64,000 bases of DNA, from contig CAYWPA010000001.1 in assembly GCA_964459835.1 (NCBI GenBank), positions 1,601 through 65,600 of the forward strand, given 5' to 3'. Source of the stretch: an uncultured Methanosarcinales archaeon. Lineage in GTDB: Archaea; Nanobdellota; Nanobdellia; Woesearchaeales; UBA12501. The notes beneath the pieces were generated by a model that saw only the letters and a list, made by a program, of their open reading frames with translations, was not told where the DNA came from and made no database searches. Each line of letters opens with the position of its first letter. The first letter of the stretch is position 1. Below, piece by piece: positions 18,887 to 40,849 of the stretch. A program made the translations under genes and the position numbers.

Positions 18887-18908
18887 CCCAAATTAAAAAA
18901 TAAAAAAT

Positions 18909-19364: not shown

Positions 19365-19390
19365 ATTTAAAGTTAATGCTTAAAGAAGTC

Positions 19391-20317: not shown

Positions 20318-20358
20318 GGTATTTCGAATGTTAGGCCTCCTGAGAGTAGGATTTCAAT

Positions 20359-21213: not shown

Positions 21214-21214
21214 C

Positions 21215-21748
21215 TTACTTTTTCCTGAAATCCCCTTTAAGCATGCAGAACATATGCACATCCTGGAATTTTCCGCTTATATATGATCGCTTCCTTAGCA
21301 ATCCTTCGTAATTTAAGCTCAGCTTAATCGCCAGCCTTTTTGCCTCAAGATGCTCAGTCGGGCACGGGAACTCCACCCTGTTCAATCCGAGAGACTTAAA
21401 CCCGTAGCCCATCAAGGCTTCGCACGCCTCTACTCCGTAATCCTTTCCCCTGAACGGCTTTCCAATCCAATACCCAAGCTCCGCATACTTGTCGTTTATA
21501 TTTATGTTGTTGAACTCAACACCACCTACCAAATAATTGGAAGAGTTTTCAATTATTGCATAAGAAAATGCTGTTTTCTTTTTCATATTTTCTTCTGCTT
21601 TTTTTATAAACAGCTTTGCATGCTTTAAGGTGTAAGGATAAGGGATATGTGTAAAAGAAGCTACCTTTCTGTCATTTGCAAGCTTTACTAAATTTGCTGC
21701 ATCCTTTTCCCTGAACTGCCTTAAGGTTATATTTTTTGCCTTGATCAT
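21215..21748 (-). CDS. GNAT family N-acetyltransferase (RimJ/RimL-like)
   Basis: 177 aa; acetyl-CoA-binding-like GYGFKSLGLNRVE region; sits between sucC and sucD. Confidence 0.6.
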   Translation of the reverse strand: MIKAKNITLRQFREKDAANLVKLANDRKVASFTHIPYPYTLKHAKLFIKKAEENMKKKTAFSYAIIENSSNYLVGGVEFNNININDKYAELGYWIGKPFRGKDYGVEACEALMGYGFKSLGLNRVEFPCPTEHLEAKRLAIKLSLNYEGLLRKRSYISGKFQDVHMFCMLKGDFRKK

Positions 21749-22842
21749 TTTACCGTTGAAATTATTTTTTTTACAGCTTCTTCCATTGTGCTTATGGAGT
21801 GAATCCCGTCTTTATCTAAAATCTTTTTTCCGGCTTCCTCATCAATACCTGTAATCCTGACTACCATAGGGATTTTGATTCCGAATTTTTTCTTGTAGTC
21901 AATAATTCCTTTTGCTACTTCCTTGCAGCTTGTAAGGCCTGCAAATATATTAATAAGTATTCCCCCTGGCTTTTTCATCATGCAGATTTCCATTGCCTTT
22001 TCCATTACATCTTCTCCGCTTCCTGCGCCTACATCAAGGAAATTGGCGGGCTTTCCTCCGTATAAGCTAATTAAATCCAAAGTCGCCATAACCATGCCTG
22101 CGCCGTTTCCTATTACAGCTATGTTTCCGTCAAGCTCAACATAGCCGAGGCCGAGCTTCTTTGCCTTTTTCTCTATTTCTGTTCCTTCAAATTTTGTCTT
22201 GAGCTTCTGCCTGAATAAGGCATTGTCGTCAATGATTATTTTTGAGTCAGCTGCAACAAGCTTGTTGTCTGAAACAACCAATGGATTGATCTCAACAATA
22301 GTTGCATCTTTTTCTTTCATTATTTTGTACAGCTTTGTTATCAGCTCAAGAATGTTTTCTTTTGCCTTAAAGTTGCTGATCAATGAAGATATTTTTGCTA
22401 TGTTTTCTGAGCTCAATTCAAAGAAAGGAAATTTTATTATCTTATCAGGATTTTTCTCTGCAAGCTCCTCTATATCAACTCCACCTTCAAATGAGAACAG
22501 CAACATGATGCCTTTGTGCTTTCTGTCAACAGCCAATGAAATATACAGCTCATCATCAACAGACAGCTTTTCCTCAACAAGAATCTTCTTTGGTATCATT
22601 CCTTTTATTTCCTTCTCGAAAAGCTTTTTTGCCTCTGTTTCTGCAAACTCCTGCGAAGAAGAAACTATTCCTCCGAGCTTTCCCCTATGGCCTGTGAGAA
22701 CCTGACTTTTCAGGACAACATCTCCTCTTATTTTGATTAGATTTTTCTTAAGCTCTTTTGTGCTAGAAATCACAAACCCTTTTGGGACAGAAACACCATA
22801 CTTGGAAAATATCTCCTTCCCCTCATATTCCATCAGTTTCAT
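21745..22842 (-). CDS. sucC: succinyl-CoA synthetase beta subunit (ATP-grasp)
   Basis: MKLMEYEGKEIFSKYGV N-terminus, ATP-grasp and CoA-ligase domains. Confidence 0.9.
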   Translation of the reverse strand: MKLMEYEGKEIFSKYGVSVPKGFVISSTKELKKNLIKIRGDVVLKSQVLTGHRGKLGGIVSSSQEFAETEAKKLFEKEIKGMIPKKILVEEKLSVDDELYISLAVDRKHKGIMLLFSFEGGVDIEELAEKNPDKIIKFPFFELSSENIAKISSLISNFKAKENILELITKLYKIMKEKDATIVEINPLVVSDNKLVAADSKIIIDDNALFRQKLKTKFEGTEIEKKAKKLGLGYVELDGNIAVIGNGAGMVMATLDLISLYGGKPANFLDVGAGSGEDVMEKAMEICMMKKPGGILINIFAGLTSCKEVAKGIIDYKKKFGIKIPMVVRITGIDEEAGKKILDKDGIHSISTMEEAVKKIISTVK

Positions 22843-24113: not shown

Positions 24114-24752
24114 TTAAAGCAGATAAATCACATTGCTCGTGTTCGGGCAGGCTTCTTTGTGAATATCGTGCTTAAGCCGTTCTAAATCCTCTACAGTATC
24201 AACATCGCTCCTTACTTCAAGCAGAGCAAAGCCTATGCCTTTTTCTTCCAGATTTCTTTTCTGCTGCTCCAAAACCTTATCCGTGCTCCAATTTATGCCT
24301 GAAAAAATATCTGTATCAACGCCTTTGTTTATTCCAATCAGATAATACCCGCCGTCTTTTGCAGGACCTAAGACAGCTTCATTATCGTTCAGCAAAGCAA
24401 GAGCTTTCTTTATATTCCTTTCAAGAATATCAGGAATGTCAGAGCCAATGATTATAACTTTTTGAAACTCATTCAGCAGCAAATCAAAGCAGTTCTTCAT
24501 CCTCTCGCCCAAATCCTTTCCTTCCTGCGGAATGTAATTTACTGTTCCATACAGTTTTCTCATATCATCTTCTTTTTCTTTCGGAGAAAAGCAGATAAAC
24601 AGGTCGTACTCTTTGTTGTCGTGAAGGATAAGCAAGTCTTTAACAAATGCTATCTGCAGCTTTGCTGCATTTTCCTCGCCAATATCTACTGCAAGCCTTG
24701 TCTTTACTTTTCCTTTTTCAGGATATTTTGTGAATATGGCTAATGCGTCCAT
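24114..24752 (-). CDS. DUF2064 (TIGR04282-like) nucleotidyltransferase-fold protein
   Basis: N-terminal ALAIFTKYPEKGKVKTRL signature; paired with the adjacent GT2. Confidence 0.6.
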   Translation of the reverse strand: MDALAIFTKYPEKGKVKTRLAVDIGEENAAKLQIAFVKDLLILHDNKEYDLFICFSPKEKEDDMRKLYGTVNYIPQEGKDLGERMKNCFDLLLNEFQKVIIIGSDIPDILERNIKKALALLNDNEAVLGPAKDGGYYLIGINKGVDTDIFSGINWSTDKVLEQQKRNLEEKGIGFALLEVRSDVDTVEDLERLKHDIHKEACPNTSNVIYLL

Positions 24753-25423
24753 TATAAGTACAGTCTAGCTAATTTGTCAGGCTTTGTGCCTAAAAAATAC
24801 AAAAGCCTTATAAGGCCCATTTTAAAATACATTTTCGTTATGCCTTTTTTCAAAAGCCTTCTTCCTGATGTAGATGCTTTGCTTCTTATTATCTTTATCC
24901 TTTTTTTGCTGTACTTTTCTATAAGCCTTTTTGAAAAGTCGACGTCCTCCATGATTCTTATGTTATTGAAGCCTCCCAGCTCACTAAATGCCTGTTTCTT
25001 TACAAATATTGCCTGGTCTCCGAATATAACCTTTGATGTTAAAATCCTGTAATTTGACCTTGCTGCTATTATACTAAGTAGTGGATGCCTCTCTTTAAAC
25101 CTTATGCAGAAGCCGCCAGCAACAAAGTCTGTATTTTTTATTTTGCTTATTTCTTCAAAGGCATTTTGAGGAAGCAAAGTGTCGGCATGCAAAAATAATA
25201 TGATATCTCCTTTTGCTTTCTTTGCTCCGGCGTTCATCTGCCCCGCCCTTCCTTTTTGAGAGCTAACAATCTTTACGCCTAATTTTTTTGCAATCTTTAC
25301 AGTATTATCTCTGCTTTCGCCGTCAGAAACAATAATCTCGCATTTTCCATGCTTTTTCACACTATTGATAGCATCGGCAATGTTTTTTTCTTCATTTAGT
25401 GTCGGAATAACTACAGATATCAT
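24752..25423 (-). CDS. glycosyltransferase family 2 (TIGR04283-like)
   Basis: MISVVIPTLNEEKNI and DGESRD motifs. Confidence 0.7.
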   Translation of the reverse strand: MISVVIPTLNEEKNIADAINSVKKHGKCEIIVSDGESRDNTVKIAKKLGVKIVSSQKGRAGQMNAGAKKAKGDIILFLHADTLLPQNAFEEISKIKNTDFVAGGFCIRFKERHPLLSIIAARSNYRILTSKVIFGDQAIFVKKQAFSELGGFNNIRIMEDVDFSKRLIEKYSKKRIKIIRSKASTSGRRLLKKGITKMYFKMGLIRLLYFLGTKPDKLARLYL

Positions 25424-26166
25424 TTGGGGTGATATTTCCTTTTTTCTATATATTTTTTTCCGGCAATCGAGAATATGATTAATGCGGCGAATAGCAAAAC
25501 AGGGATTAGGACTTCTGTTGCCATCATGTCCATAAAGCCAAAGTCTCCTGCCAGAACCTTCTCTCCAAGAGTTGCAAACAAGTAAGTATAGATGAATGTT
25601 CCCGGTATTATCCCCAAAGCTGTCGCCAGGAAATAATCCTTTAACGAAATCTTTGTCAAGCCAGAGCCAAAGTTTAAGATATTGAACGGAACAACTGGAA
25701 TCAGCCTTGGAATAAAGACAGCCATAAAGCCTTTTTCCCCAATCTTTGTGTCAAGCTTCTTTGCCTTTCCCCTTGTTATTGACACTACAAAATCCCTTCC
25801 AAGATACTTTGCAGACATAAAGCACAGTGTTGCCCCTATAACAGCTCCGATCCAGTTGTACAGAAAGCCTTTTGCGGTGCCGAAAAGAATCGCGCCTGCA
25901 AATGTAAGAACTGTCCCTGGGATAAGAAAGATAGTTCCGGCTGCGTATATAAAAATAAATATCACAGGGCCTAAAATTCCAAACCCTTCCACAAACCCCT
26001 TTATGGCTTCAGGTGTTATGCCGGCTCCAATATCTGTAAACTTAAATATGTAAACGACACCGATTAAAGCCAGAGCAAACAATACGAATTTGATAATTGG
26101 TCCGCTGTTTTTTGCCATAATATGGTATTTTGCTTTTCTATTAAAAAATGTTGTGCTTAATATCAA
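25420..26166 (-). CDS. DedA/TVP38 family membrane protein
   Basis: VPFNILNFGSGLTKISLKDYFLATALGIIPGTFIYTYL signature. Confidence 0.7.
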   Translation of the reverse strand: MILSTTFFNRKAKYHIMAKNSGPIIKFVLFALALIGVVYIFKFTDIGAGITPEAIKGFVEGFGILGPVIFIFIYAAGTIFLIPGTVLTFAGAILFGTAKGFLYNWIGAVIGATLCFMSAKYLGRDFVVSITRGKAKKLDTKIGEKGFMAVFIPRLIPVVPFNILNFGSGLTKISLKDYFLATALGIIPGTFIYTYLFATLGEKVLAGDFGFMDMMATEVLIPVLLFAALIIFSIAGKKYIEKRKYHPK

Positions 26167-26969: not shown

Positions 26970-27728
26970 TCAACTTTTTTTGCTTATTCTGTACAGCATG
27001 AAAACAGAAATCAGAAACATTGGGATGCTAAGCACCTGTCCCATTGTCAATGGAAATGTAGAAGGTAAAGTCTGGTACTCTTTGAAGTACTCCACAAAAA
27101 ACCTTAGCAATCCATACAGTGCGCCGAAGCTCCAGAATAAAAATCCTTTTGGAAGGTTTTTTACTGACTTCATATTCCATAAAATTCCGAATATCAATAA
27201 ATTCTTAGCTGCTTCATATAACTGAGAAGGATGCCTAAATCCTTCATATCCTTTAAACTTCACGGCCCATGGAATGCTTGTTACTCTTCCTACAATTTCG
27301 CCGTTGAAAAAATTCCCAACCCTTACAAAAGCAGCGCCTAATGCAATTGGTATTACAGCAATATCTGCAATATCATAAAACTGGATTTTTTTCTTTTTTG
27401 AATACCACCACATTACAAGCACTCCTCCTATTACTGCACCGTGGCTTGCTAATCCTCCTTTCCATACATACAAAATCTGCTCAGGATTTGAAAAATAATA
27501 TCCTGGATTATAGAATAAAACCTCTCCAAGCCTTGCCCCGACTATGAGGCCTATCATCATGAAAAGAAACAGCTCTTCTATATTCTGCCTTTTGATCCCT
27601 CTTTCTTCTGCAAGCTTAATTATGATAAAATAACCTATAAGAAATGCAAGGGCCATCAGAATTCCATAATACCTAATCTGAAAGGGCCCAACCTCTGCCA
27701 AAATCGGGTTTATATTGTGGTAAAACAT
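26970..27728 (-). CDS. lgt: prolipoprotein diacylglyceryl transferase
   Basis: Matches the Lgt PROSITE-type signature RVGNFFNGEIVG and the HPSQLYEA motif; 7 TM. Confidence 0.8.
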   Translation of the reverse strand: MFYHNINPILAEVGPFQIRYYGILMALAFLIGYFIIIKLAEERGIKRQNIEELFLFMMIGLIVGARLGEVLFYNPGYYFSNPEQILYVWKGGLASHGAVIGGVLVMWWYSKKKKIQFYDIADIAVIPIALGAAFVRVGNFFNGEIVGRVTSIPWAVKFKGYEGFRHPSQLYEAAKNLLIFGILWNMKSVKNLPKGFLFWSFGALYGLLRFFVEYFKEYQTLPSTFPLTMGQVLSIPMFLISVFMLYRISKKS

Positions 27729-27756: not shown

Positions 27757-28437
27757 TTACTGCAGCTCAGCGTCAATTATCTGCTTGAATGCAGAGAACG
27801 GCTGCGCTCCTACAATCTTCTTTCCGTTTACAAAGAAAGAAGGAGTTCCTGAAACTCCTGCAGCCTGCCCATCAGTCAAGTCTTTCTGCACTTCTGACGC
27901 ATACTTTCCTGAGTCTAAGCAGCTGTTGAATTTTGCTGTATCAAGGCCAAGCTCATCTGCGTACTTTTTCAGATCGATTACGCCAATGGCTGCCTGGTTG
28001 TCAAAAATCTTGTTATGCATCTCCCAGAACTTTCCTTGGTCATCTGCGCATTCAGCTGCCTCTGCCGCTTTCTGCGCATATGGATGTATGCTTGTTAAAG
28101 GAAAGTCCCTGTAAACTAATTTTGCTTTTCCTGTTTTAATGTATTCTTTTTCCAATTGTGGAAGCGTATCAGAATAGAACCTTGCACAGAAAGGACACTG
28201 GAAATCTGAAAACTCTATTATCTCTACAGGCGCGTTCTTGTTTCCCTTAACAGGATCATCATCTGCGCTAACTTCTACTGTTGGCGCTGCTGAAGGCTGT
28301 GTAGGAGAAGGGCTTGGTGCTGCTCCTGTTTCTCCCCTGAAGAATAAAGCCCATATCAAAACTATTGCAAGAATTACTGTAGCTATTTTCCAAAAATCCT
28401 CTTTTTTCAATGAAAACAAAACATCGCTTTTTGCCAT
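27757..28437 (-). CDS. membrane-anchored DsbA-like thiol:disulfide oxidoreductase
   Basis: IEFSDFQCPFCARFY thioredoxin-fold CxxC; N-terminal TM plus Pro/Ser-rich linker. Confidence 0.8.
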   Translation of the reverse strand: MAKSDVLFSLKKEDFWKIATVILAIVLIWALFFRGETGAAPSPSPTQPSAAPTVEVSADDDPVKGNKNAPVEIIEFSDFQCPFCARFYSDTLPQLEKEYIKTGKAKLVYRDFPLTSIHPYAQKAAEAAECADDQGKFWEMHNKIFDNQAAIGVIDLKKYADELGLDTAKFNSCLDSGKYASEVQKDLTDGQAAGVSGTPSFFVNGKKIVGAQPFSAFKQIIDAELQ

Positions 28438-28497
28438 CTATACACCCTCCATAAGGAATGATAAGCGGAAATACCGGTTGTTTATAAAAGTATTGTT

Positions 28498-28689
28498 TTA
28501 AGCCTTATGGCCGACAGGGCACGGCCTGTCTCCGTAGTCGCAGAAAACGCAGCAGCCTTGCTTTGCAGATATTGTTTTTCCACAGCCTTCACATTTGTAA
28601 AAAGTAATGCATTTATCACTAGGAATCTCCATTTTCTGTTTGTGCCTGCATTTAGGGCATGTTAGAGTTCCTGTTGCAGATAGTTTCAT
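28498..28689 (-). CDS. small Cys-rich (multi-CxxC) metal-binding protein
   Basis: CPKC...CEGCG...GCCVFCDYG...CP; 63 aa. Confidence 0.45.
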   Translation of the reverse strand: MKLSATGTLTCPKCRHKQKMEIPSDKCITFYKCEGCGKTISAKQGCCVFCDYGDRPCPVGHKA

Positions 28690-28775
28690 GAGTTTTTTGA
28701 CCGTATATCGTTTATTTAGTAAAATTTATATAAAGGTTATGATATAAAAATATGAACTTTGGTTGAGGTGGAAAA

Positions 28776-29168
28776 ATGAAAAAAATTTTGCTTCTTATCG
28801 CAGTGCTTCTATTGATGACAGGTTGTGCTAAAAGCTATGACTATGGAAAGCCCGCAGAGCCGCAGAAAACATATGTTGTTGAAGAAGAGGCGCAAGCTGA
28901 TGCAGAACAATCAGAGCCTGAAACATCAACAGTTAGTGTAACGATACAGAACTTTGCCTTCAGCCCTGCAACAATAACTGTGAAGAAAGGCACAGCTGTT
29001 ACTTGGACAAATATGGATTCAGCTCCGCATACAGCAACAGGAGATGGCTTTGACACAGGAGTTTTAAAGAAAGGCGAGAGTGGCAGCATTACTTTCAATG
29101 AAGCGGGAACATTTGACTATACCTGCACAATTCATCCAAGCATAAAGGGGAAGGTAATAGTGCAATGA
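28776..29168 (+). CDS. cupredoxin-fold lipoprotein
   Basis: Signal with LLLMTGC lipobox-like Cys; C-terminal YTCTIHPSIKGKVIV cupredoxin copper-site-like motif; GGTGG SD-like sequence upstream. Confidence 0.65.
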   Translation: MKKILLLIAVLLLMTGCAKSYDYGKPAEPQKTYVVEEEAQADAEQSEPETSTVSVTIQNFAFSPATITVKKGTAVTWTNMDSAPHTATGDGFDTGVLKKGESGSITFNEAGTFDYTCTIHPSIKGKVIVQ

Positions 29169-29539
29169 ACAAAAAACTTGCAAATGTTTTTGTTTTTTCA
29201 ATTTTGTTTGCTTTAGCTGTTAATGCAGTAGATATAATATACCATCTTTCCACAGGTGTGCTTGCTCCGCTTTACTATATCATAAGAAAATTCCTTGCGA
29301 TGTTTGTTGCTGCTTTTGCAGTGACATGGCTATATGGCAAAAACATTAAATCAGGCGTTGCTGTTTCAGTCCTTGGTCCAGTATTGTTTTTTATTTACTA
29401 CCGCTTTTTTTATCTGATTAAAGCAGGTGATTTCTTTGCCTTTGGACCTGAAGTGGGAGACAGCGTATCAATGCTATTTGCCCACATGATAATGGCTTTT
29501 GCTGTCTACTGGATGTTTTTGAAGGTTGTTAAAGAATAA
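29165..29539 (+). CDS. membrane protein, unknown function
   Basis: ATGA overlap with the cupredoxin gene; 4 TM. Confidence 0.45.
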   Translation: MNKKLANVFVFSILFALAVNAVDIIYHLSTGVLAPLYYIIRKFLAMFVAAFAVTWLYGKNIKSGVAVSVLGPVLFFIYYRFFYLIKAGDFFAFGPEVGDSVSMLFAHMIMAFAVYWMFLKVVKE

Positions 29540-30187
29540 CTATCCGGTTGCATTAGAAACATTGCTTTGATTGATTGTAGCGTTCATCTCAATATAAAAC
29601 TCTTTAAGATCATCAGGAGACTTATATTCAAGGAATGTTTCATACTCTCCCACTCTGATTTTAGTAAACTCTCCTCTCCTCCTATGGCCTGGAACGTGTG
29701 AATAAATGTTATATTCCCCTTCTTTTGCGTTAAAAACATAGTCTGTTTTACCGTTTGCAGAGACATTAAGCCTTTCAGTTACCCTGTCAAAGCTTCTCAT
29801 AGGGCCTTCAACTACAACCTCATTAGCTTCGCTTACATTATTTTCAATGATTAGCTTAACAGGCCCTGGAAGAATGTTTATCTCTGCAGGAGAAAACTTA
29901 TCAACATTTATTACAATTTTAATAAACTGCTCTATTTCCTCATCGCTTATCCTTTCAAGAACTTCTGACTCGTTTATTTCTGTCTGGTTTGTCTCATTTG
30001 ATTCTTCAACTTCTGTTTCGTTTACTTCTTCTGCTGTTTCATTAATACCATCTTGGGCTGTTTCATTCTCAATCTCCCCTATCTCTGTTTCAAGATCAAG
30101 AATATCCTGCTCTAAATCACTGTTGGATTTGCAGCCTAGAGTAATAAAAACAATAAATACAACAATAATCAAAACCAGCTTTTTCAT
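29540..30187 (-). CDS. acidic lipoprotein with degenerate cupredoxin-like domain
   Basis: Signal ending ITLGC; NET/NQT/NES sequon-rich acidic repeat; C-terminal YSHVPGH resembles a cupredoxin CxxPGH site with Cys replaced by Ser. Confidence 0.45.
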   Translation of the reverse strand: MKKLVLIIVVFIVFITLGCKSNSDLEQDILDLETEIGEIENETAQDGINETAEEVNETEVEESNETNQTEINESEVLERISDEEIEQFIKIVINVDKFSPAEINILPGPVKLIIENNVSEANEVVVEGPMRSFDRVTERLNVSANGKTDYVFNAKEGEYNIYSHVPGHRRRGEFTKIRVGEYETFLEYKSPDDLKEFYIEMNATINQSNVSNATG

Positions 30188-30222
30188 AAAAACAAAGAAG
30201 AAGGATTTGTATTTAAAGCTTT

Positions 30223-32652
30223 CTACAGTTCTTTTACAGCCTTTTCTATTTCCTCTGTTGCCCGGATATATGAACCATGCTTTACAATAATTGGCTTCCC
30301 TATATTTACTTTTGTCCTTGCAAATTTAGGGAATCTCTTCCATCTCGGAAGAACTTTTATTACATTCTCCACCTTTATCGGAACAACAGGAATGCCCATC
30401 TCTACAGCCAGTATTCCTATGCCCTGCTTAAAGCTTTGAATCTCCCCTGTCATTGTTCTTGCTCCCTCAGGATAAATCAAAATATTCCATTCTTTTCCTA
30501 CTAGCCTTCCTGTATATTTTAGGCTTCTCCTGAAGCCTTTTTGCTGTGGAAACGGGTAAATATTATAGAATATGGTTGCAAGGTGGTATAAAAGCCATTT
30601 CCCAAAGCCTTTGTATTTCAGGTTGTGCCTGAAGAAAAACTCCTGCCATGCTGCAACTGCTGTTTTAAGGGAAAACCTCAGCGGAAGCTTCATCAGTATT
30701 ATTGGCGTGTCAAAATGGCTTTGGTGATTTGCTGCAAAGATAACGGGGCTTTTCAATCCTTTTAAGTTCTCCCTTCCATAAATCCTTGGCCAGCTGAAAA
30801 ATCTTGCAATTTGGTTTGTTAAAGGCTGAAGTACAAAACGGAAAAATCTTGCTGCTAGGGAAAGCGCCCAATGCTTGAATATTGGCTTTTCCTCGATTAT
30901 TATTTTTTGTTTTATTATTTGTTCAAGCTCTTTTATTTTTGTGCTAGGTATCATTCTTTCTTCGTCTATCTCAATATTGAACTCCTGTTCCAGCAAAGAA
31001 ATCAATTCAACAATGTCAATTGAAGACAAGCCAAGATCTTGTAAAGTAGCAGCATCTGTTATTTTTTTATTGGTTAATTGTGAAATTATGCTATAAATCT
31101 TGTTCTTTTTCTTTACAATAACAGCTTCTTTTTTTGTTTTCAATGCTTCCTTAACAGCAAACTTTTTTATTTTTAGAGTTGTTGTTCTTGGAAAATCCTC
31201 ATATGGCCAGACAGAGTAATCCTTTATTTTCTGTGAAGAGTCAAGCTTTTCGTTTGCTTTGTCTACAATGTTTTTTGCCTTTGCTCCTTCTTTCAGCAGC
31301 AAAACAGCATATACCTCTTCTCCTTTCTTTCCATCCATTCCGATAACACAGCTATCTGCTACACCTTCTATTTTGTTCAGGATATTTTCAATATCTTCTG
31401 CATACACATTGATGCCTGCTGCTGTTACTATAACATCTTTTTTCCTTCCTTTCAGATAAAGAAATCCTTCATTATCAAATCTTCCTAAATCGCCTGTTTT
31501 AAGCCATCCATCCTCAAAAAGCTCTTTTGTCTTTGTCGGGTTCTTGTAGTAGCCTTGGGTTATATTATCGCCTTTTGCAACCACCTCTCCGTTCTTTATG
31601 CTAACTTCTACACCGGTAATGGCCCTTCCAACTGAGCCAATCTTGTGCTTTTTTGTCGTGTTTGCAGTTAAGATTGGAGAAGTTTCTGTTAAACCATATC
31701 CCTGAATAACAAGTATCCCTATGCTGTTGTAGAATCTTTCAAGCTCTTCATTCAGTGTTGCTCCGCCTGAAATAAAATAATTAATATTGTTTCCAAGCTT
31801 TTTATGGATTTTTCTGAACAATAATTTTCTTAGTGAAAACGGAATATATTTAGCAGCTTTCAATGCTATGAAAAACTGATTTTCTTTGTTTTTCTTTTTT
31901 ACTTCCTGCAGAATGCCTGAATATATTAATTCCAAAATTCTTGGAACAAATGCTGCATTTGTTATTTTTTCATCTTCAAAGGCCTCAAAGAGAGAACTTG
32001 GCTTTAGTGTCTTTACATAGACAATGCTTGCTTTTTGCGAAAGTGGAACAAAAAATCCTGTCATCTGCTCAAAGACATGGCTCAATGGAAGAACAGAAAG
32101 AAACTTGAATTTTGATTTTACTTTTTCAACTGAATTTATAGCATTTAAGTTTGAAATAAAATTCTTGTGTGTTAAAATAACTCCTTTTGGATTTCCTGTT
32201 GTTCCGGAAGTATATATTATCTCAGCAATGTCGTTTTCATTAACATCAGTAGAGTATGTCCCTTCTTCTAATGAATCAAGCAATTCCTCAACAAAAACTG
32301 TTTTTTGCTTTAATTTTGGCTTGTGCCTTGTCTGAAACACCAATTTTGCCTGAACAATATTCTGTATTTTCCTTGCAAACACAATATCTGACCTTAAATC
32401 CACTGGCACGACTATTACTCCTGCTAAAAACGCCCCCAAAAGCATGATAGCATATTCTATGCCGTTATAGCTCCAGACTATGATCATGTCTCCTTTATTT
32501 ACTTTGTTTTTCTTAAGAAAATAGGCGAATTTAGAAGAAAGCTTGTATAGCTCTTTGTAAGTATAGGCAAATTTTCTATACTCTTTTCTATCAATAACAG
32601 CAACTTTGTTTGATTCCTTAAATCCTTCAATTAAATCAGCTAAGGTTTTCAC
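30223..32652 (-). CDS. fatty-acyl-AMP ligase / carrier-protein / 1-acyl-sn-glycerol-3-phosphate acyltransferase (PlsC) tripartite fusion
   Basis: AMP-binding motifs IIYTSGTTGNPKGV, GYGLTET, GDLGRFDNEGFLYLKGRKKD; PP-binding LQDLGLSSIDIVEL; PlsC motifs NHQSHFD (HX4D) and YPEGAR. Confidence 0.8.
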   Translation of the reverse strand: MKTLADLIEGFKESNKVAVIDRKEYRKFAYTYKELYKLSSKFAYFLKKNKVNKGDMIIVWSYNGIEYAIMLLGAFLAGVIVVPVDLRSDIVFARKIQNIVQAKLVFQTRHKPKLKQKTVFVEELLDSLEEGTYSTDVNENDIAEIIYTSGTTGNPKGVILTHKNFISNLNAINSVEKVKSKFKFLSVLPLSHVFEQMTGFFVPLSQKASIVYVKTLKPSSLFEAFEDEKITNAAFVPRILELIYSGILQEVKKKNKENQFFIALKAAKYIPFSLRKLLFRKIHKKLGNNINYFISGGATLNEELERFYNSIGILVIQGYGLTETSPILTANTTKKHKIGSVGRAITGVEVSIKNGEVVAKGDNITQGYYKNPTKTKELFEDGWLKTGDLGRFDNEGFLYLKGRKKDVIVTAAGINVYAEDIENILNKIEGVADSCVIGMDGKKGEEVYAVLLLKEGAKAKNIVDKANEKLDSSQKIKDYSVWPYEDFPRTTTLKIKKFAVKEALKTKKEAVIVKKKNKIYSIISQLTNKKITDAATLQDLGLSSIDIVELISLLEQEFNIEIDEERMIPSTKIKELEQIIKQKIIIEEKPIFKHWALSLAARFFRFVLQPLTNQIARFFSWPRIYGRENLKGLKSPVIFAANHQSHFDTPIILMKLPLRFSLKTAVAAWQEFFFRHNLKYKGFGKWLLYHLATIFYNIYPFPQQKGFRRSLKYTGRLVGKEWNILIYPEGARTMTGEIQSFKQGIGILAVEMGIPVVPIKVENVIKVLPRWKRFPKFARTKVNIGKPIIVKHGSYIRATEEIEKAVKEL

Positions 32653-32987
32653 TTTAACAGCAGCACGACTTGAGCAATTGCATAGTCCTTATCATGGCTT
32701 ATGCTTACATCAACGTCTTCTATGATTTCTTTTAGCTCGTTTGCCAGCAACAAAGCTGGCTTTCCTGTTTTTTGTTTTTTAAGCTCAACTTTCATCCATT
32801 CCGGCTTTTTTCCTAGAGCTTTAAAAAAAGCTTCCTTTGCAGCAAATATTCCAGCAATACTTTCAGCTTTGTAATACTTCATTTCTGATTTATGCAGCAC
32901 TTTTTTCATAAATTCTTTGTTCAGCATAAGTTTTCCTACTTTTGGGATATATACAATATCCACACCTGTTCTTATTTTTGATTTCAT
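32649..32987 (-). CDS. acpS: holo-[acyl-carrier-protein] synthase (4'-phosphopantetheinyl transferase)
   Basis: GVDIVYIP ... SISHDKDYAIAQV AcpS motifs; 4-nt overlap with the fusion gene. Confidence 0.75.
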   Translation of the reverse strand: MKSKIRTGVDIVYIPKVGKLMLNKEFMKKVLHKSEMKYYKAESIAGIFAAKEAFFKALGKKPEWMKVELKKQKTGKPALLLANELKEIIEDVDVSISHDKDYAIAQVVLLLK

Positions 32988-33418
32988 TTTACATAAAACT
33001 CCAGAGGCCTGCCGTAAAGGTCGTACATAGCTATGTTGCCTTTTTCAAACGGCCTGCACACTATCATATGCACCAAGCCATGCTTATTAAATGTGCTTTT
33101 GTCAGCAACAGAAGGAAGGTTGCTGTAGCTTGGATGGCTGTGCACAGTTCCAATATCATTAGATATTAAAGGGAGGTTTAGCTTGAAGGATGCAGACTCC
33201 TCTGTAGTCTCGTAAATCTGATATGTTAAGCTTACTATTAGCAATTCCCTTTCATCTATCTTCCCGTTCAGAATGGCAAAAAATTCCTTAGGGTATGCCT
33301 GCCTTGCAAGGTGGCAGATTTCATCCATTGCTGAACTCTTAACCACAATTTTATCAAACTCAAACTTGTCCAGGCCAAATAATTTAGCCATCTTGCTCTT
33401 TATTATTTTAAGAACCAT
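32984..33418 (-). CDS. JAB/MPN (JAMM) metalloprotease domain protein
   Basis: HSHPSYSNLPSVAD JAMM motif (HxHx7Sx2D). Confidence 0.7.
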   Translation of the reverse strand: MVLKIIKSKMAKLFGLDKFEFDKIVVKSSAMDEICHLARQAYPKEFFAILNGKIDERELLIVSLTYQIYETTEESASFKLNLPLISNDIGTVHSHPSYSNLPSVADKSTFNKHGLVHMIVCRPFEKGNIAMYDLYGRPLEFYVK

Positions 33419-33431: not shown

Positions 33432-34052
33432 TTATTTCTTTGCTTCTACAAGCATCACAGACCAAAACCAGTTTGCTTTCCACCAGCTTATCCTTACATC
33501 CTTAAACTCATGAACCCTGAACAGCTTCCTCATTTCATTTGTTGAGTATGCCTTTTGATGTCCTTTCTTAAATCTCCATAGTTTTTCAAAAAACCAAACC
33601 CATCTTCCGTCTGTGCAGAAATCCGTCAATAGCAAAGTTCCGCCTTTTTTTAGAACCCTATGCATCTCTTCAAGAAATAAATTAACACTTGCCATGTGAT
33701 GTATAACATTTGTAGATACTATTTTTGAAAACTCATTGTCTTTAAATTCAATATTATGGGCATGCCCGTAAAGTATTTCAACATTCTTAAAGCCTTCCAG
33801 CTTTTTCTTTGCAATCCTTATCATCTTTTCAGAAACATCTATCCCTACAAGCCTCTTGTACTTGTTTTTCTCTGCAATCAGCCTAAGCAATTCCCCTGTT
33901 CCGCAGCCGACATCAAGAACAGCATCGTTTCGTGTCAGCTTCATGGATTCAAGTATTTTGTCATAAGAAGACCTGAGAAAAATCTGAAACTTTGTGTCGT
34001 ACTTCTCAGCACGCTTGTCGTACTCGCTCTGCACAGCCCTTGTAATATCCAT
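33432..34052 (-). CDS. class I SAM-dependent methyltransferase
   Basis: VLDVGCGTGELL motif I. Confidence 0.7.
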   Translation of the reverse strand: MDITRAVQSEYDKRAEKYDTKFQIFLRSSYDKILESMKLTRNDAVLDVGCGTGELLRLIAEKNKYKRLVGIDVSEKMIRIAKKKLEGFKNVEILYGHAHNIEFKDNEFSKIVSTNVIHHMASVNLFLEEMHRVLKKGGTLLLTDFCTDGRWVWFFEKLWRFKKGHQKAYSTNEMRKLFRVHEFKDVRISWWKANWFWSVMLVEAKK

Positions 34053-34081: not shown

Positions 34082-34906
34082 TTAAAGCCTGTGTACAACT
34101 GATAGTATAAAAATCCTTCCCCACGTAAAAGCTGGAAGAACTGTTATTGCGCCTATAAGAATTATTGAGGTTGGATCTGATAAAGCTGCCAATAAGTAAT
34201 TAATCAAGAAAAATACTATTATGACAACAGCAAAAGCAGGTATTGTGAATTTGGCTTTTTTTATGCCAATAATAAATGCTTTTTTTATTGTTTCCCATGT
34301 TTTTTGCTTTTCAATTAGTGAGTAGGAGATATTTGCAAAATAAACAATAAGCAGCAGAAATATTGAAAGTACTATGCTTCTTTTGTCAACAATCTGGTCA
34401 GCCCTTACCTGCGCAAGTGTTGTTACAAAATCAAAAACAAAGCTTGCAATAAAGTAAATGACAAACAAGATAAGCCAGAATAGGTTAACTTTTGCAAAAT
34501 TGATTACAAAGTCTGTAAAGTCATGCTTTTTTCCAGCCATCCTGTAGCAGAAACACCAGCTGATTCCCATGAAAAAGCAGTAAATAATGTAAACTGCTGC
34601 AAGCGCAATAAGCAAAAGCAATATGAATGATTTTGTATAGCTTGCTGCTCCTGCGCTTTCTATCACTCCCCACAGTGAAGGCGTTTTAGCAAGTGCATCG
34701 ATATTTCCTGACGCCTGCGTCACAAGGGATGCTGACTTGTAGAAATACTCAATAATCTTTGTAAAAATAGGGCTTGTTATAAAGCCATAGGCAAAAATAA
34801 ACAGCAAGTCAGTAAGCATAGGAAGGAATATGTAAAGGCCGTTTTCTTTTATGATCTTAAAAGAACGGAAAAATTCCTCTTTTACCAACGATATTACATC
34901 CTTCAT
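34082..34906 (-). CDS. polytopic membrane protein, unknown function
   Basis: 274 aa, multiple TM. Confidence 0.4.
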   Translation of the reverse strand: MKDVISLVKEEFFRSFKIIKENGLYIFLPMLTDLLFIFAYGFITSPIFTKIIEYFYKSASLVTQASGNIDALAKTPSLWGVIESAGAASYTKSFILLLLIALAAVYIIYCFFMGISWCFCYRMAGKKHDFTDFVINFAKVNLFWLILFVIYFIASFVFDFVTTLAQVRADQIVDKRSIVLSIFLLLIVYFANISYSLIEKQKTWETIKKAFIIGIKKAKFTIPAFAVVIIVFFLINYLLAALSDPTSIILIGAITVLPAFTWGRIFILSVVHRL

Positions 34907-35268: not shown

Positions 35269-35439
35269 CCACTTTTCTAGCTGTTCTTTTGCTTTCTTTT
35301 TAGTCTTGAAAAACTTTGTTTCTGAAACTGACAAATAAGGGATCCTTCTTGTTACCTTAAATCTTTTTTCTGCTTGGCTTTTAAGCTCAATTAAAGAAAC
35401 TTCCCATTTCTTTGCTGGATGCTTTTTTGCCTTTTTCAT
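35260..35439 (-). CDS. small basic protein (59 aa)
   Basis: Not in the ORF track; MKKAKKHPAKKWEVSLIELKSQAEKRFKVTRR...; its ATG overlaps the TGA of the upstream DsbA-like gene (ATGA coupling). Confidence 0.4.
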   Translation of the reverse strand: MKKAKKHPAKKWEVSLIELKSQAEKRFKVTRRIPYLSVSETKFFKTKKKAKEQLEKWLK

Positions 35440-36110
35440 TTTAACTCGTTATCTATAACCTCTTTTAATTTTGCAAAGCTCTGCGCTCCGACAAGCATCT
35501 GCCCGTTGATAAACAAAGTAGGCGTTCCCTGCACTCCTCTTGAAGAGCCTTCTGCAAAGTCTGCCTGCACTATTGAAAATTTCTGGTTTGTGTCCATACA
35601 TTCGTTAAATTGGTCCATGTTTAGATTTAGCTTTGCTGCATATGCTTCCAATGCATCCCTTGAAACCCTGTCTTGATTCTGGAATATTAAATCATGGTAT
35701 TCCCAGAACTTTCCCTGATCCTTAGCGCATTCACTTGCCTCTGCTGCCTTGTATGCGTTCGGGTGTATCTGTGAAATAGGAAAGTGCCTGTATACAATTG
35801 CAACTTTGTCTCCATAAACAGACTTCACTTGCTTTAAAATCGGGAGCTGCTGTTTGCAGAAAGGGCATTCAAAGTCAGAGAATTCCTCTATAACAACATC
35901 TGCATCTGAGTTTTCTGCTAAATTTGCTGTTAAAGCCTCTCCTGTTATTCCTGAAGTTGCATAGTTTCTTAACTCTTCTGAAGACCCTAAGCTTTGTGTA
36001 AAAGCCAGGTCAATATCAGGAGAAGGAAAAAAATAATTTATATTCATAGCAAAAAGAACCAATCCTAAAACAAGCAATATTCCTAAGCCAAAAATTACTT
36101 TGTTTTTCAT
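35436..36110 (-). CDS. membrane-anchored DsbA-like thiol:disulfide oxidoreductase
   Basis: IEEFSDFECPFCKQQLP. Confidence 0.8.
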   Translation of the reverse strand: MKNKVIFGLGILLVLGLVLFAMNINYFFPSPDIDLAFTQSLGSSEELRNYATSGITGEALTANLAENSDADVVIEEFSDFECPFCKQQLPILKQVKSVYGDKVAIVYRHFPISQIHPNAYKAAEASECAKDQGKFWEYHDLIFQNQDRVSRDALEAYAAKLNLNMDQFNECMDTNQKFSIVQADFAEGSSRGVQGTPTLFINGQMLVGAQSFAKLKEVIDNELK

Positions 36111-36111: not shown

Positions 36112-36498
36112 TTATGGAAGAGGGCATCCTGTCAGCGCTGATAAGCTTTCCAGAGGCATTACTCCTGCTTCTAATAGCTGCCCTTTTATGCTCCATGTTG
36201 GATAAGCCTTGATCCCAACCTCTTTGCATTCAGGATTTACATCGCAGTCCTTGAAGTCAATGTACCTGAAAGAATCCCCAAACATTTTTTTCTGGTTCTG
36301 GCAGTGTGGGCACCAGTTAGTGCCGTACATCGCTACATCATTCTCTGTCAGGCAGACTGCAAAGCTGTCATATTTTGCTGAGTCTGCTTTCTTTAAATAG
36401 AAAAATAAAGCAATAACAACGATAGCCAAAACAATTCCTGCCCTGAAGTAAAGCTTTTTCTGTTTACTGTCCATTTTATTTTGAAAGTTCTGCGTCAA
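36112..36498 (-). CDS. membrane-anchored thioredoxin-like protein
   Basis: N-terminal TM; MYGTNWCPHCQNQKK CxxC. Confidence 0.7.
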   Translation of the reverse strand: MTQNFQNKMDSKQKKLYFRAGIVLAIVVIALFFYLKKADSAKYDSFAVCLTENDVAMYGTNWCPHCQNQKKMFGDSFRYIDFKDCDVNPECKEVGIKAYPTWSIKGQLLEAGVMPLESLSALTGCPLP

Positions 36499-37480
36499 TT
36501 ATCTCCTTGAAAACCTCAAAAGGCTGAGCTCCTGAAACAGGAATTCCATTGATAAAGAAAGCCGGTGTTCCTGAAACGCCTACGCTTATTCCGTCCTGCA
36601 TGTCCTTCTCAACTTCTGACTGGTATTTTCCTGAATCCAGGCATTTGTTGAATTTAGCTGTATCCAACCCAAGGTCAGCTGCCCATTGCTTCAAGTCTGC
36701 TGCAGTGAATTGAACAGTGCCCTGGCCTTGCTTCTCCTGCTCTTCAAATACCTTATCATGATATTCCCAGTACTTGTTTTGTTCTTCTGCACACTCAGCT
36801 GCTTCTGCTGCCTTCTGTGCAGTTGGATGTATTTGTGCTAGAGGAAAGTCTCTATAAACAAACTTAACCTTTCCTGTGTCAATATAATTTTTTTCTAGTT
36901 TAGGTAACGTTTGTCTCCAGAATGCTCTGCAGAATGGGCACTGGAAATCTGAAAACTCGATTATTTCAACTGGTGCATCTTTGCTTCCTTTTACTGCATC
37001 GTCATCTGCTTTTGGAGGATTTAGGTATTTGCCAGCGCCTATTGCCGCTGGGTTTACAATAAATTTGTTGCCTTTAACAATAAATGCTGCCTGAAGCTGA
37101 GGATTTGCCTGAAAGTTTGCGGTTTTTGTTATTTTGTCATCAAATACATATGCTGGCAGTGCTATTATATCCAAATCTTCTGCCATCTTTTTTCCTTCGG
37201 GTGTAGTATAGTCAATTTCCTTTATTTCTAAACTAGGGAATAATTGTCCCTGTAGAACAGATAGTGCCTGTGATACATCACAGCTGCTGCAGCCAGGGTC
37301 ATTTATTATTGTTAAAGTTACCTTTGGGTCACTTGAAGTGTCAATTGCTCCTGGAACTGTTGGAACGGCTGGAGCCTTCTCTTTTACAAACACCAAATAT
37401 AGAACGATGATTGCCAGTACGACAACAGCAACCTTCCATGCTGTGTCTTTTTTAATCCTTATCTCTGAACCCTTTGCCAT
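36476..37480 (-). CDS. DsbA-like thiol:disulfide oxidoreductase with extra N-terminal domain
   Basis: IIEFSDFQCPFCRAFW; 334 aa; N-terminal TM plus about 130-aa additional domain with a CSSC pair. Confidence 0.75.
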   Translation of the reverse strand: MAKGSEIRIKKDTAWKVAVVVLAIIVLYLVFVKEKAPAVPTVPGAIDTSSDPKVTLTIINDPGCSSCDVSQALSVLQGQLFPSLEIKEIDYTTPEGKKMAEDLDIIALPAYVFDDKITKTANFQANPQLQAAFIVKGNKFIVNPAAIGAGKYLNPPKADDDAVKGSKDAPVEIIEFSDFQCPFCRAFWRQTLPKLEKNYIDTGKVKFVYRDFPLAQIHPTAQKAAEAAECAEEQNKYWEYHDKVFEEQEKQGQGTVQFTAADLKQWAADLGLDTAKFNKCLDSGKYQSEVEKDMQDGISVGVSGTPAFFINGIPVSGAQPFEVFKEIIDAELSK

Positions 37481-38659: not shown

Positions 38660-40849
38660 TTAGAATTTCTTTGCCTTCAGAAGAAGGGAGTTTCCTACAA
38701 CACTTACGCTGCTAAATACCATGGCTGCAGCTGCAATCATAGGGCTTAAAAGCAGCCCTGTAAATGGGTAAAGAACCCCTGCTGCGATAGGAATGCCTGC
38801 TGTATTGTAGAAAAATGACCAGAAAAGATTCTGCCTTATTGTGCTGAAGGTCTTTTTTGAAAGCTTAAGCGACTCAACAACTTTTAACGGATGGCCCCTT
38901 ACAAGCACTATGTTGCCTGCTTCAATGGCTATATCGGTTCCTGTGCCTATTGCAATGCCTAGGTCAGCCTGTACTAATGCAGGCGCATCATTAATGCCAT
39001 CTCCCACAAAAGCAACTTTTAATTTATCCCTCTGAAGCATTTTTACCTTGTCCGCCTTGTCCTGAGGAAGCACCTCTGCAAACACTTTTTCTATGCCAGC
39101 TTGCTTGGCAATTGCATCTGCTGTTCTTTTGTTATCCCCTGTAATCATGATAGTTTCAATCCCCATTGCCCTTAGCTTATTGACTGCTTCGAGCGAATCT
39201 TCTTTTAAAGTATCTGCAATGGCGATAATCCCCAATGCTTCTTTTTCATCTGCGACTACAATAACAGTCTTTGCCTGCTGCTCAAGCTCTTCAATCTTGC
39301 CCTGACATGTTTTTGTGGAAATATTATGCCCTTTCATTAAAACATTGTTACCGACAAATATTTTTTTGTTTCCAATAACTCCTGTAACGCCTTTTCCGGC
39401 AAAATTTTCAAATCTATGAACAATTTTTAATGCAATCTTTTTATCCTTTGCAGCGTTTACAACTGCCTGCGCCAATGGATGCTCTGATAATGCTTCTATG
39501 CTGGCTCCCAATGCCAACACACTATCTTCTGAAATATTTTTGCATGCAGCAATATTGGTTACTCTTGGCTTTCCCTCTGTTAATGTCCCTGTTTTATCAA
39601 ATATAACAACATCGATCTTTTTTCCCCTTTCCAGCGCCTCGCCGTTTTTAATCAAGATTCCTCTTTTTGCTCCAATGCCTGTTCCAACCATTATTGCTGT
39701 TGGTGTTGCAAGCCCAAGAGAGCAAGGGCAGGCAATGACAAGCACTGCAACTGCAGGAATCAAGCTTGCTGCAATATTTCCTGTAAAGAAATACCATACT
39801 GCAAATGTAATTATAGAGATAATAATAACAATAGGCACAAATATCCCTGAAACATTGTCTGCAAGCTTTTGTATCGGAGCTGTCTTTGTCTGCGCCTCTG
39901 TGACCATTTTTACGATCTGCGCAAGCACAGTGTCTTCTCCGACCTTTGTTGCCTTTATGTACAAAGCTCCATTGATATTTATAGTGGCTCCAAAAACATC
40001 ATCATCTTTCTGCTTTCCAACTGGCAGGCTTTCTCCTGTAAGCATGGATTCATCAACACTTGACATTCCCTTTGCAACCTTTCCATCAACTGGAATTTTT
40101 TCGCCGGGCTTTACAAGAAGTATGTCGCCAGCCTTAACCTGCTCAATGGGAATTTCCATTTCTTTGTTATTTTTTATTACCCTTGCTGTTTTGGCTCCAA
40201 GCTGAAGCAGCTTTTCAATGGCCTCGCTTGCCTGCCCCCTGCATTTTGCTTCAAAATACCTTCCAAGCAGAATAAATGCAGCAATAACAGCGCCTGTTTC
40301 AAAATAAAGGTCTGGCTTTCCTGCTGCCATGGCCCATGCACTGTAGAATAATGCAGCAAGAACACCTATTGATACTAAAGTGTCCATATTTGCAGACTTC
40401 ATTCTTGCCTGATGGATCATGCCTAAGTGGAACTCCCTTCCAAGAACAAGAATTACAAATGCGCTTAATAGTGCCTGGATCCAGAGGCTTGCATTAATGC
40501 CTAGGATATCCAGCGGCAGCTTGATACTGAACATAGCGATTATTAGCGGAGGGGCTGCCAGCAGCAATGCCAAAACAGCTCTCCTTTTTGTTGTAGCAAG
40601 CTCTTTTTGAGCTTCCTGCTTATGATTATGGGTGAATTGTTCAGTAAGCACCTTATACCCATTCTTTATGATTGCATCATGAAGGTCTTTCTCAGAAACA
40701 AGGCTTTCATCATACTCCACAGTTGCGCTGTGTGTTGCAAAATTAACCATGGCTTCAGAGACACCTTTTATTTTTTTCAGGCTTCTTTCATTTCGCACTG
40801 CACAAGAAGCGCAGTGCATTCCTGCAATATTAAAAGTTGTTTTTTTCAT
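38660..40849 (-). CDS. copA: copper-translocating P1B-type ATPase
   Basis: N-terminal [15 protein letters not shown]; CPC in TM6; DKTGTLT; GDGINDAP. Confidence 0.9.

Follow-up and report, generated by a model that had tools for sequence, protein, structure and literature searches.

A candidate acyl-lipid salvage unit in a DPANN archaeon: an adenylation–carrier–PlsC-type acyltransferase fusion encoded with its own AcpS

We examined a 64-kb stretch of DNA, hereafter the window (64,000 nucleotides; positions 1,601 to 65,600 of contig CAYWPA010000001.1), from an uncultured archaeon of the Woesearchaeales, focusing on a minus-strand gene pair that encodes a tri-domain fusion protein (adenylation, carrier and PlsC/AGPAT-type acyltransferase domains) and a holo-acyl carrier protein (ACP) synthase, AcpS. 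From their sequences, these two genes probably constitute a self-sufficient unit for acyl-lipid salvage and remodelling, similar to the Escherichia coli enzyme Aas with the carrier built in (we put the probability of this reading at roughly 0.6). The predicted chemistry itself, from fatty acid to acyl-AMP to carrier to O-acyl transfer, we rate as likely, and a lysophospholipid is our best single guess for the acceptor, at about even odds. To our knowledge, an enzyme of the Aas/ElbD kind that has its carrier built in and a dedicated AcpS beside it is new for archaea, but the family to which it belongs is widespread; in the literature we found no description of this fusion, of its coupling to AcpS or of a cluster with major facilitator superfamily (MFS) and hydrolase genes in DPANN archaea or in bacteria of the candidate phyla radiation (CPR). 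A preliminary description of this DNA had proposed a self-contained unit for activating and esterifying fatty acids with its own AcpS, a proposal strengthened here by AcpS adjacency that is limited to DPANN and CPR lineages and by lipid-related neighbours (MFS proteins, lipase-like hydrolases and MlaA) at related loci.

Domain architecture and gene integrity

The two genes and the parts of the fusion are given below; Pfam matches were counted at gathering cut-offs, and all four fusion domains lie above them.

30223..32652, (-) strand: tri-domain fusion, 809 aa, with a GTG start and a stop codon at 30223-30225; from the open reading frame (ORF), Pfam and full-length homologs
32649..32987, (-) strand: AcpS gene, 112-aa holo-ACP synthase (AcpS-type 4'-phosphopantetheinyl transferase); PF01648, TIGR00516
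31546..32613, (-) strand: adenylation, large N-terminal subdomain, residues 14-369; PF00501, E 1.2e-66, 225.6 bits against a cut-off of 29.9
31177..31392, (-) strand: adenylation, small C-terminal subdomain, residues 421-492; PF13193, E 5.5e-7, 30.8 bits against 24.5
30919..31101, (-) strand: carrier (ACP-like, PP-binding), residues 518-578; PF00550, E 3.7e-8, 33.9 bits against 20.8
31021-31023, (-) strand: predicted phosphopantetheine serine S544, motif DLGLSS; invariant in 32 homologs
30796..30873, (-) strand: basic/aromatic helical segment FKHWALSLAARFFRFVLQPLTNQIARFF, residues 594-619; helices H594-597 and H599-619 in the model
30373..30786, (-) strand: PlsC/AGPAT-type acyltransferase, residues 623-760; PF01553, E 2.3e-17, 63.5 bits against 23
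30724-30726 (H643) and 30709-30711 (D648), (-) strand: block I, NHQSHFD; invariant in 32 homologs
Within the acyltransferase domain: block III, YPEG, P728-E729-G730; invariant in 32 homologs

The motifs that the preliminary description had assigned to one 809-aa protein (adenylation motifs, GLSS, HX4D and PEG) are all present and are invariant in our homolog alignment (32 full-length sequences), and its domain calls (PF00501, PF00550 and PF01553) all pass the cut-offs in hidden Markov model searches. In the adenylation region, the ANL core motifs (P-loop, T148-G157; YGLTE, Y319-E323; TGD, T386-D388; GRKKD, G402-D406, with R403 and K405; and the A10 lysine, K494) are invariant or nearly so across the alignment, with the A7 TGD and A8 GRKKD motifs lying just upstream of the PF13193 region and the A10 lysine just after it. 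The carrier displays the family-wide motif DLGL(S/T)S(I/V)D around S544, matches the NCBIfam model TIGR00517 (acyl_carrier) at 1.4e-9 and superposes on type II ACPs with target template-modelling scores (TM-scores) of 0.70-0.76; it is predicted to be an ACP like those of type II fatty-acid synthases.

A full-length AF2 model was confident (pLDDT 85.4, pTM 0.78). Fold matches to this full-length model were confined to adenylation and adenylation-carrier structures (best query TM-score 0.54), and the search returned no solved structure that joins an adenylation-carrier didomain to a PlsC-type acyltransferase. Neighbours of the PlsC and glycerol-phosphate acyltransferase (GPAT) kind surfaced because the C-terminal part was modelled separately after the full-length search had given adenylation and carrier matches only. 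Between carrier and acyltransferase core, the helical segment at residues 594-619 contains an invariant arginine (R605) and aligns to the second N-terminal helix of Thermotoga maritima PlsC; no hydrophobic segment of transmembrane grade was found in the fusion protein. This segment, which precedes the core as a helix does in the monotopic PlsC, is likely to be an interfacial membrane-binding helix.

The junction between the two genes reads AAA-GTG-A, with the GTG start of the fusion sharing four nucleotides (GTGA) with the TGA stop of AcpS, an overlap through which the fusion is predicted to be translationally coupled to AcpS. The four-nucleotide overlap had been noted in the preliminary description and stands, but the statement there that AcpS follows the fusion needs correcting: on the coding strand it precedes it, and in transcription order AcpS comes first and the fusion second.

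Slightly low GC and GC3 contents of the fusion and AcpS genes relative to the window mean (0.35/0.32 against 0.38), together with two-ORF splits in a few relatives (L008, L058 and L081), could point to an artefact or a dead gene: a chimeric assembly, separate genes joined through a frameshift, or a gene that was acquired horizontally and is now decaying. However, the fusion ORF is unbroken over its 809 aa, the frameshift raised in the preliminary description as grounds for doubt is absent, and the catalytic residues are all intact. Moreover, a second, independent assembly matches window positions 28223-32847 at 99.98% identity, only three of the relatives' loci with enough sequence lack a continuous tri-domain ORF, and archaeal marker genes lie on either side of the locus (RNaseP_arch, 775-1103; ABCE1/RLI, 58516-60270), indicating an archaeal host. 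We dropped the artefact explanation, which intact residues, continuous ORFs in relatives and the independent assembly effectively refute and to which we assign a negligible probability.

The AcpS partner

AcpS itself scores above both relevant cut-offs (PF01648, E 3.3e-11, 43.7 bits against 25; NCBIfam TIGR00516 acpS, 63.2 bits against 59.8), and its D10, AAKEAFFK (E52, K56) and SISH motifs are invariant in 10 orthologs. To place the pair in context, we used a scan of species-representative genomes that yielded 134 relatives of the fusion, the best 80 of which were taken for locus analysis (8 DPANN-type archaeal, 3 CPR and 69 other bacterial, the last mostly Geobacterales and Desulfuromonadales). 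AcpS lies beside the fusion in seven of the eight informative archaeal loci (the window, L005, L008, L010, L011, L012 and L013; two archaeal loci cut by contig ends were left out of this count) and in all three CPR loci (L019, L020 and L034), as against none of 70 Geobacterales and other bacterial loci; the archaeal locus L015 has no AcpS within 6 kb of its fusion. In the 64-kb window, we found no carrier-like sequence besides the fused carrier (the probe being an E. coli ACP sequence), nor any further gene of the PlsC or adenylation type.

Most archaea are reported to lack ACP and its synthase (PMC3533463), and the pairing of AcpS with the fusion in DPANN and CPR lineages alone fits lineages without ACP machinery of their own. 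Most simply, the fusion would be the substrate of AcpS, and this would be why the two genes travel together. The Geobacterales have a fatty-acid synthesis pathway of their own, and no AcpS lies next to the fusion at their loci.

Family identity of the catalytic domains

The best Protein Data Bank match of the adenylation domain is FadD13 (3R44, 1.1e-43), followed by MenE and MatB; the acyl-ACP synthetase 8HSY matches at 5.7e-27, and FadD10, of the fatty-acyl-AMP ligase (FAAL) type, at 1.4e-20, well below FadD13. The fold search ranks FadD13, MatB and MenE against the FAALs as the sequence search does, and a Foldseek alignment with FadD13 runs over 541 columns against a target of 502 residues, so that a large insertion seems unlikely (with FadD13, not a FAAL, as the reference). 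By homology, the adenylation domain is acyl-CoA/ACP-synthetase-like and not FAAL-like. The term 'fatty-acyl-AMP ligase' in the preliminary description is therefore fair as a label for function, and fails as an assignment to the FAAL family, since FAAL-type enzymes score far lower.

For the C-terminal domain, T. maritima PlsC (5KYM) is the closest match by both sequence (2.5e-9) and fold (2.6e-10), with GPAT1, plant GPATs and PatA as the next fold neighbours. Its best NCBIfam domain match is the AGPAT model TIGR00530, at 50 bits against a cut-off of 102.95, and the only specific NCBIfam models that match it are the Aas-type PRK08633 and PRK06814. Aligned by hhalign to the acyltransferase domain of Aas, the family profile covers blocks I-IV (probability 97.6%, E 4.8e-12), whereas to E. 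coli PlsC blocks III-IV aligned alone (E 6.8e-8) and blocks I-II remained unaligned. Canonical GPAT/PlsC acyltransferases acting on glycerol-phosphate and lysophosphatidic acid use an arginine in block II (F-x-x-R); the segment of the family that aligns there with Aas, NIYPFPQ, is without arginine and resembles FVPLDP of Aas, while the invariant R605 lies elsewhere. In direct BLASTP comparison with E. coli Aas, the adenylation (E 8e-32) and acyltransferase (E 1e-9) domains each match at 28% identity in swapped order, in agreement with the reversed domain order pointed out in the preliminary description.

Distribution and transfer

Full-length homologs with the same domains occur in Woesearchaeota and Pacearchaeota (57-65% identity), Saccharimonadales (44%) and Geobacteraceae/Desulfuromonadaceae (~41%), carrying annotations that go no further than 'AMP-binding protein' or 'long-chain acyl-CoA synthetase'. 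With a carrier-plus-acyltransferase profile we retrieved 1,056 representatives of clusters at 50% identity (E <= 1e-30). Among the best 150, lengths are 800-870 aa apart from fragments, and none is of ElbD length. In the best-80 loci, the tri-domain protein is encoded wherever the contig allows, other than the three split cases. The check on taxonomic distribution suggested in the preliminary description thus gave Woesearchaeota/Nanoarchaeota, CPR and Geobacterales/Desulfuromonadales; a system that was described as unexpected in archaea is indeed present in an archaeon, but it is not peculiar to archaea, being a family of ~1,000 clusters that CPR and Geobacterales share.

A neighbour-joining (distance-based) tree with 100 bootstraps resolved three groups, each supported at 100/100: Geobacter-type bacteria; a 12-member archaeal clade that includes the window protein; and CPR with one Woesearchaeote (L005; JACPTF010000016.1, fusion at 5681-8478). 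The AcpS of L005 closely resembles CPR AcpS in alignment, and the same locus carries a gene for an archaeal/eukaryotic-type ribosomal protein S15 (Ribosomal_S13_N domain). Because the L005 fusion nests with CPR at 100/100, the two-gene cassette appears to have crossed the CPR/DPANN boundary at least once. PlsC homologs in DPANN bins have been listed among acquisitions from Bacteria (Coleman et al., PMC6431249).

As a separate observation, two public metagenome-assembled genomes labelled 'uncultured Methanosarcinales archaeon' (L008, CAZSMA010000008.1; L011, CAZPDB010000053.1) carry a DPANN-type AcpS-MFS-fusion-hydrolase cluster, and their fusions nest in the Woesearchaeota/Nanoarchaeota clade; their taxonomic label or binning may be wrong.

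Conserved gene neighbours

Six of eight archaeal genomes have a UMF1/Atg22-like MFS gene, placed either between the AcpS and fusion genes or right behind the latter, and a membrane-anchored alpha/beta-hydrolase of ~287 aa (Abhydrolase_1/Hydrolase_4) lies directly downstream of the fusion in four. Two CPR genomes have an alpha/beta-hydrolase of another family, a lipase-type partner that is PGAP1/LCAT/palmitoyl-thioesterase-like, directly upstream of AcpS (L019, Levybacteria, 5420-6118; L020, Saccharibacteria, 5362-6033). In Geobacterales, an MFS gene directly follows the fusion in 30 loci (median gap 86 bp), an unannotated ~477-aa protein occurs after the fusion in 22 and an MlaA lipoprotein ~2.7 kb downstream of it in 20, as in L067:

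8906-10282: MFS protein
10596-12029: ~477-aa protein
12037-12969: MlaA

MlaA is an outer-membrane lipoprotein of phospholipid maintenance, and these neighbours, though they differ from lineage to lineage, all point to traffic and turnover of acyl lipids in the envelope. We also looked for LplT, the partner of Aas, among the neighbouring MFS proteins; BLASTP against E. coli LplT, NCBIfam and a homology search gave no specific link, and this identity was dropped. As no MFS protein was shown to be an LplT ortholog, the analogy to lplT-aas is positional only.

Two observations on gene clusters may be noted in their own right. Among related archaeal loci (L008, L011, L012, which is the same as L004, L013, L014, L010, which is the same as L003, and L015), the cluster runs AcpS, MFS, fusion, with the hydrolase following in four genomes, a fuller 'salvage operon' than that of the window. 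The Geobacterales cluster, in turn, is uncharacterised and has the appearance of one for envelope-lipid maintenance.

Upstream of the AcpS-fusion pair in the window, three genes are tightly packed and co-directional with it:

32984-33418, (-) strand: Prok-JAB domain protein, coupled to AcpS by an ATGA overlap
33432-34052, (-) strand: S-adenosylmethionine (SAM) methyltransferase, upstream of the Prok-JAB gene
34082-34906, (-) strand: multi-pass 274-aa membrane protein without a Pfam match, upstream of the SAM methyltransferase

No counterpart of the JAB gene was found in the other loci, the methyltransferase has weak matches elsewhere at non-equivalent positions, and the 274-aa protein has one homolog, ~3 kb upstream of AcpS in L008. 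We left these three genes out of the proposed system because they are not kept beside the fusion elsewhere.

Proposed function and alternatives

In the mechanism that we propose, AcpS would first move phosphopantetheine from CoA to Ser544; the adenylation domain would then use ATP to activate a free fatty acid as acyl-AMP and load the acyl group onto that arm as a thioester; the carrier would swing to the C-terminal PlsC-type domain, peripheral on the membrane; and the His643/Asp648 dyad would esterify a lipid hydroxyl. The acceptor would most likely be a lyso-glycerophospholipid, and possibly glycerol-phosphate or lysophosphatidate. The fatty-acid substrate, loading that takes place in cis, the kind of acceptor (here a glycerolipid) and the source of the lipids are all inferred. 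Lysolipids are abundant in CPR cells, which have neither lipid synthesis nor ACP-dependent machinery and for which uptake from other organisms has been proposed (Probst et al., PMC7242380).

Several points weigh against a salvage unit of this kind. The fusion falls below every curated equivalog cut-off, that for AGPAT (50 against 103 bits) and those for Aas included (PRK08043, ~20 bits against 886; PRK08633, 154 against 1221), and the specificity for fatty acids is drawn from sub-threshold matches to long-chain acyl-CoA ligases. Support from the neighbourhood is also uneven: the archaeal MFS proteins are UMF1/Atg22-like, with no significant similarity to LplT; the Geobacter MFS proteins match LplT weakly (E 1e-4) and do not hit the NCBIfam LplT model; and in the 64-kb window we looked for an MFS and an alpha/beta-hydrolase gene and found neither. 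In addition, bacterial fatty-acid synthesis genes occur in some Woesearchaeota (Castelle et al., PMC8204110), and the acyltransferase domain of ElbD, an enzyme that contains the same series of domains, showed no in vitro activity (PMC9131029).

The fusion might instead acylate the phospholipid backbone de novo, with its C-terminal domain acting as a GPAT or lysophosphatidate acyltransferase on glycerol-3-phosphate, glycerol-1-phosphate or lysophosphatidate to give phosphatidate, and with no part in lysolipid repair. We judge this unlikely, although T. maritima PlsC, a lysophosphatidate acyltransferase, is the nearest neighbour by fold and sequence, ahead of GPAT1 and plant GPATs, and AGPAT is the best NCBIfam domain match; bacterial PlsY and PlsC, moreover, are reported to accept both stereo-forms of glycerol-phosphate (PMC13400652). 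Set against this are the AGPAT score, at less than half its cut-off, the better fit of the family profile to the Aas acyltransferase than to E. coli PlsC, the Aas-like segment without arginine that aligns at block II, and the fact that neither the scanned ORFs of the window nor the conserved neighbours showed a PlsY, CdsA or GpsA, or another phospholipid-synthesis gene. A different acceptor altogether is improbable; it might be an amino-lipid (as for OlsA), a glycolipid, a polysaccharide or the N-terminus of a lipoprotein, downstream of the lipoprotein-modifying enzyme Lgt. PF01553 does include acyl-ACP-dependent enzymes with other acceptors, PatA (an acyltransferase of phosphatidylinositol mannosides) is among the fold neighbours, and an lgt gene and lipobox proteins lie within 3 kb of the fusion, but genes for the synthesis of head groups or amino-lipids are not conserved beside the fusion, and Lgt is not a conserved neighbour at the other loci. 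Known lipoprotein N-acyltransferases belong to families other than PF01553.

The domain order of the fusion is that of the acyl-CoA synthetase (ACS), ACP and acyltransferase (AT) part of Myxococcus ElbD, raising the prospect that the module feeds an acyl chain to dihydroxyacetone phosphate or an ether-lipid intermediate, with a separate reductase. The architecture has been noted before in bacteria: homologs of ElbD lacking its fatty-acyl reductase (FAR) domain were recorded in anaerobes and extremophiles in 2014, such FAR-less proteins in other bacteria are called 'ElbD-like homologues', and the ACS and ACP domains of ElbD are active in vitro (PMC9131029); Poribacteria and Acidobacteria have variants in which the split falls between reductase and A domain (bioRxiv 10.64898/2026.06.23.733905). 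The fusion has no reductase domain, however, and proteins of ElbD length are absent from the best 150 profile matches. An ElbD-type context (reductase, HAD and AGPS neighbours) was sought in 83 loci and not found: reductase, elbB (HAD), elbE and AGPS genes are never conserved neighbours there, the conserved ones being MFS, hydrolase, MlaA and AcpS genes. Since a reductase or elb-type partner is found neither here nor as a conserved neighbour elsewhere, we regard an ElbD-like role as very improbable and retain Aas-like salvage with a built-in carrier as the preferred reading.

Lgt, candidate lipoproteins and other genes of the window

At 2.5 kb from the fusion, the window encodes a full-length, bacterial-type Lgt (26970-27728, (-) strand; PF01790, E 2.7e-73; TIGR00544, 189.5 bits against 118.9), whose named relatives among the top 120 hits (48-61% identity) are all Woesearchaeota, Nanoarchaeia or 'archaeon'. 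Bacterial Lgt takes a diacylglyceryl group from phosphatidylglycerol. The two Lgt-adjacent cupredoxin proteins have N-terminal signal peptides with classical lipoboxes (LMTGC, ITLGC), and LspA and Lnt were not seen among the window ORFs scanned. The presence of Lgt supports, and does not prove, a lineage that handles bacterial-type glycerolipids. An archaeal homolog of Lgt has not been identified according to a 2025 paper in Nature Communications (PMC12462473). The cupredoxin genes and those downstream of lgt are:

28776-29168, (+) strand: cupredoxin-domain protein with lipobox signal MKKILLLIAVLLLMTGC; candidate Lgt substrate
29540-30187, (-) strand: cupredoxin-domain protein, 215 aa, with lipobox signal MKKLVLIIVVFIVFITLGC, on the strand of the fusion and 35 nt downstream of it; candidate Lgt substrate
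45214-45579, (+) strand: small cupredoxin-domain protein
25420-26166, (-) strand: DedA/VTT-domain membrane protein, ~800 bp downstream of lgt
24752-25423, (-) strand: GT2 glycosyltransferase, in a row with the DedA gene, downstream of lgt
24114-24752, (-) strand: DUF2064/CofC-like nucleotidyltransferase, in a row with the DedA gene, downstream of lgt

Proteins of the DedA family are implicated in lipid flipping.

The remainder of the window holds two further gene sets. A copper/thiol-redox set (27757-28437, 35436-36110, 36112-36498, 36476-37480, 38660-40849, 41108-42541 and 43869-44597) comprises four DsbA/thioredoxin-like secreted proteins, a small CxxC protein, an HMA copper P-type ATPase and a DsbD-like membrane protein with fused HMA and cupredoxin domains, an extracytoplasmic toolkit that is unusually rich for a small-genome archaeon. 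A second set at 15151-22842 on the (-) strand contains succinate dehydrogenase/fumarate reductase subunits (flavoprotein, 17165-18886; Fe-S, 16020-17168; CCG/HdrB-like, 15151-16023), a DoxX protein and the two succinyl-CoA synthetase subunits (20359-21261 and 21745-22842). DPANN archaea are not usually credited with this much central metabolism.

Implications

A wider proposal, which we put forward tentatively and consider doubtful though possible, is that Woesearchaeota-type DPANN archaea keep bacterial-type fatty-acyl ester glycerolipids by means of a minimal AcpS-fusion salvage cassette exchanged with CPR, often accompanied by the MFS and hydrolase genes, and that Lgt uses these lipids to anchor lipobox proteins. 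If true, a whole lineage would be breaching the archaeal/bacterial lipid divide in nature, driven to it by an episymbiotic lifestyle. The locus offers a concrete, expressible candidate for membrane upkeep in ultra-small DPANN and CPR cells, most of which are without lipid biosynthesis, and the fusion and AcpS should suffice for making ester-linked lipids from free fatty acids with no other ACP-dependent machinery. A cassette common to DPANN and CPR, with one Woesearchaeote nested in CPR, suggests a shared, transferable solution for a symbiotic lifestyle, and the cassette together with Lgt predicts that these archaea handle diacyl-type lipids. For bacteria, the family represents a putative, uncharacterised Aas analogue across the Geobacterales, beside MFS and MlaA genes.

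Comparison with known systems

Structural neighbours that span both the adenylation and the carrier domain are loading modules of non-ribosomal peptide and polyketide synthetases (McyG A-PCP, EntE-EntB) and stand-alone acyl-ACP synthetases (PDB 8I35). These systems follow the same logic as that predicted for the fusion, with an acyl-AMP made first and then a thioester on the phosphopantetheine arm; their downstream partner, however, is a condensation domain, ketosynthase or reductase, whereas that of the fusion is a PlsC-type acyltransferase. Myxococcus xanthus ElbD (Q1DC43), which we compared by architecture, length and neighbours, has the order FAR-ACS-ACP-AT and shares its ACS-ACP-AT part with the fusion, but differs in its FAR reductase domain and its elbB/elbE neighbours, both of which the fusion is without.

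T. maritima PlsC (5KYM) resembles the C-terminal domain of the fusion in its HX4D and PEG blocks and in the helix that precedes the catalytic core. It is a stand-alone enzyme, in contrast, and takes acyl-ACP or acyl-CoA in trans; the fusion domain, for its part, lies under the TIGR00530 cut-off and leaves blocks I-II unaligned with E. coli PlsC.

Aas differs from the fusion in order, with the acyltransferase followed by the synthetase where the fusion has adenylation first and acyltransferase last, and in its carrier, as it borrows free cellular ACP whereas the fusion has a carrier inserted between the catalytic domains and a dedicated AcpS encoded beside it; the MFS proteins beside relatives of the fusion, furthermore, fall outside the LplT family. 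Yet Aas likewise places both catalytic activities on one polypeptide, each homologous to the corresponding part of the fusion, the relatives of the fusion have a recurrent MFS gene partner, as Aas has LplT, and the presumed purpose is common to both: the re-esterification of lipids with free fatty acids.

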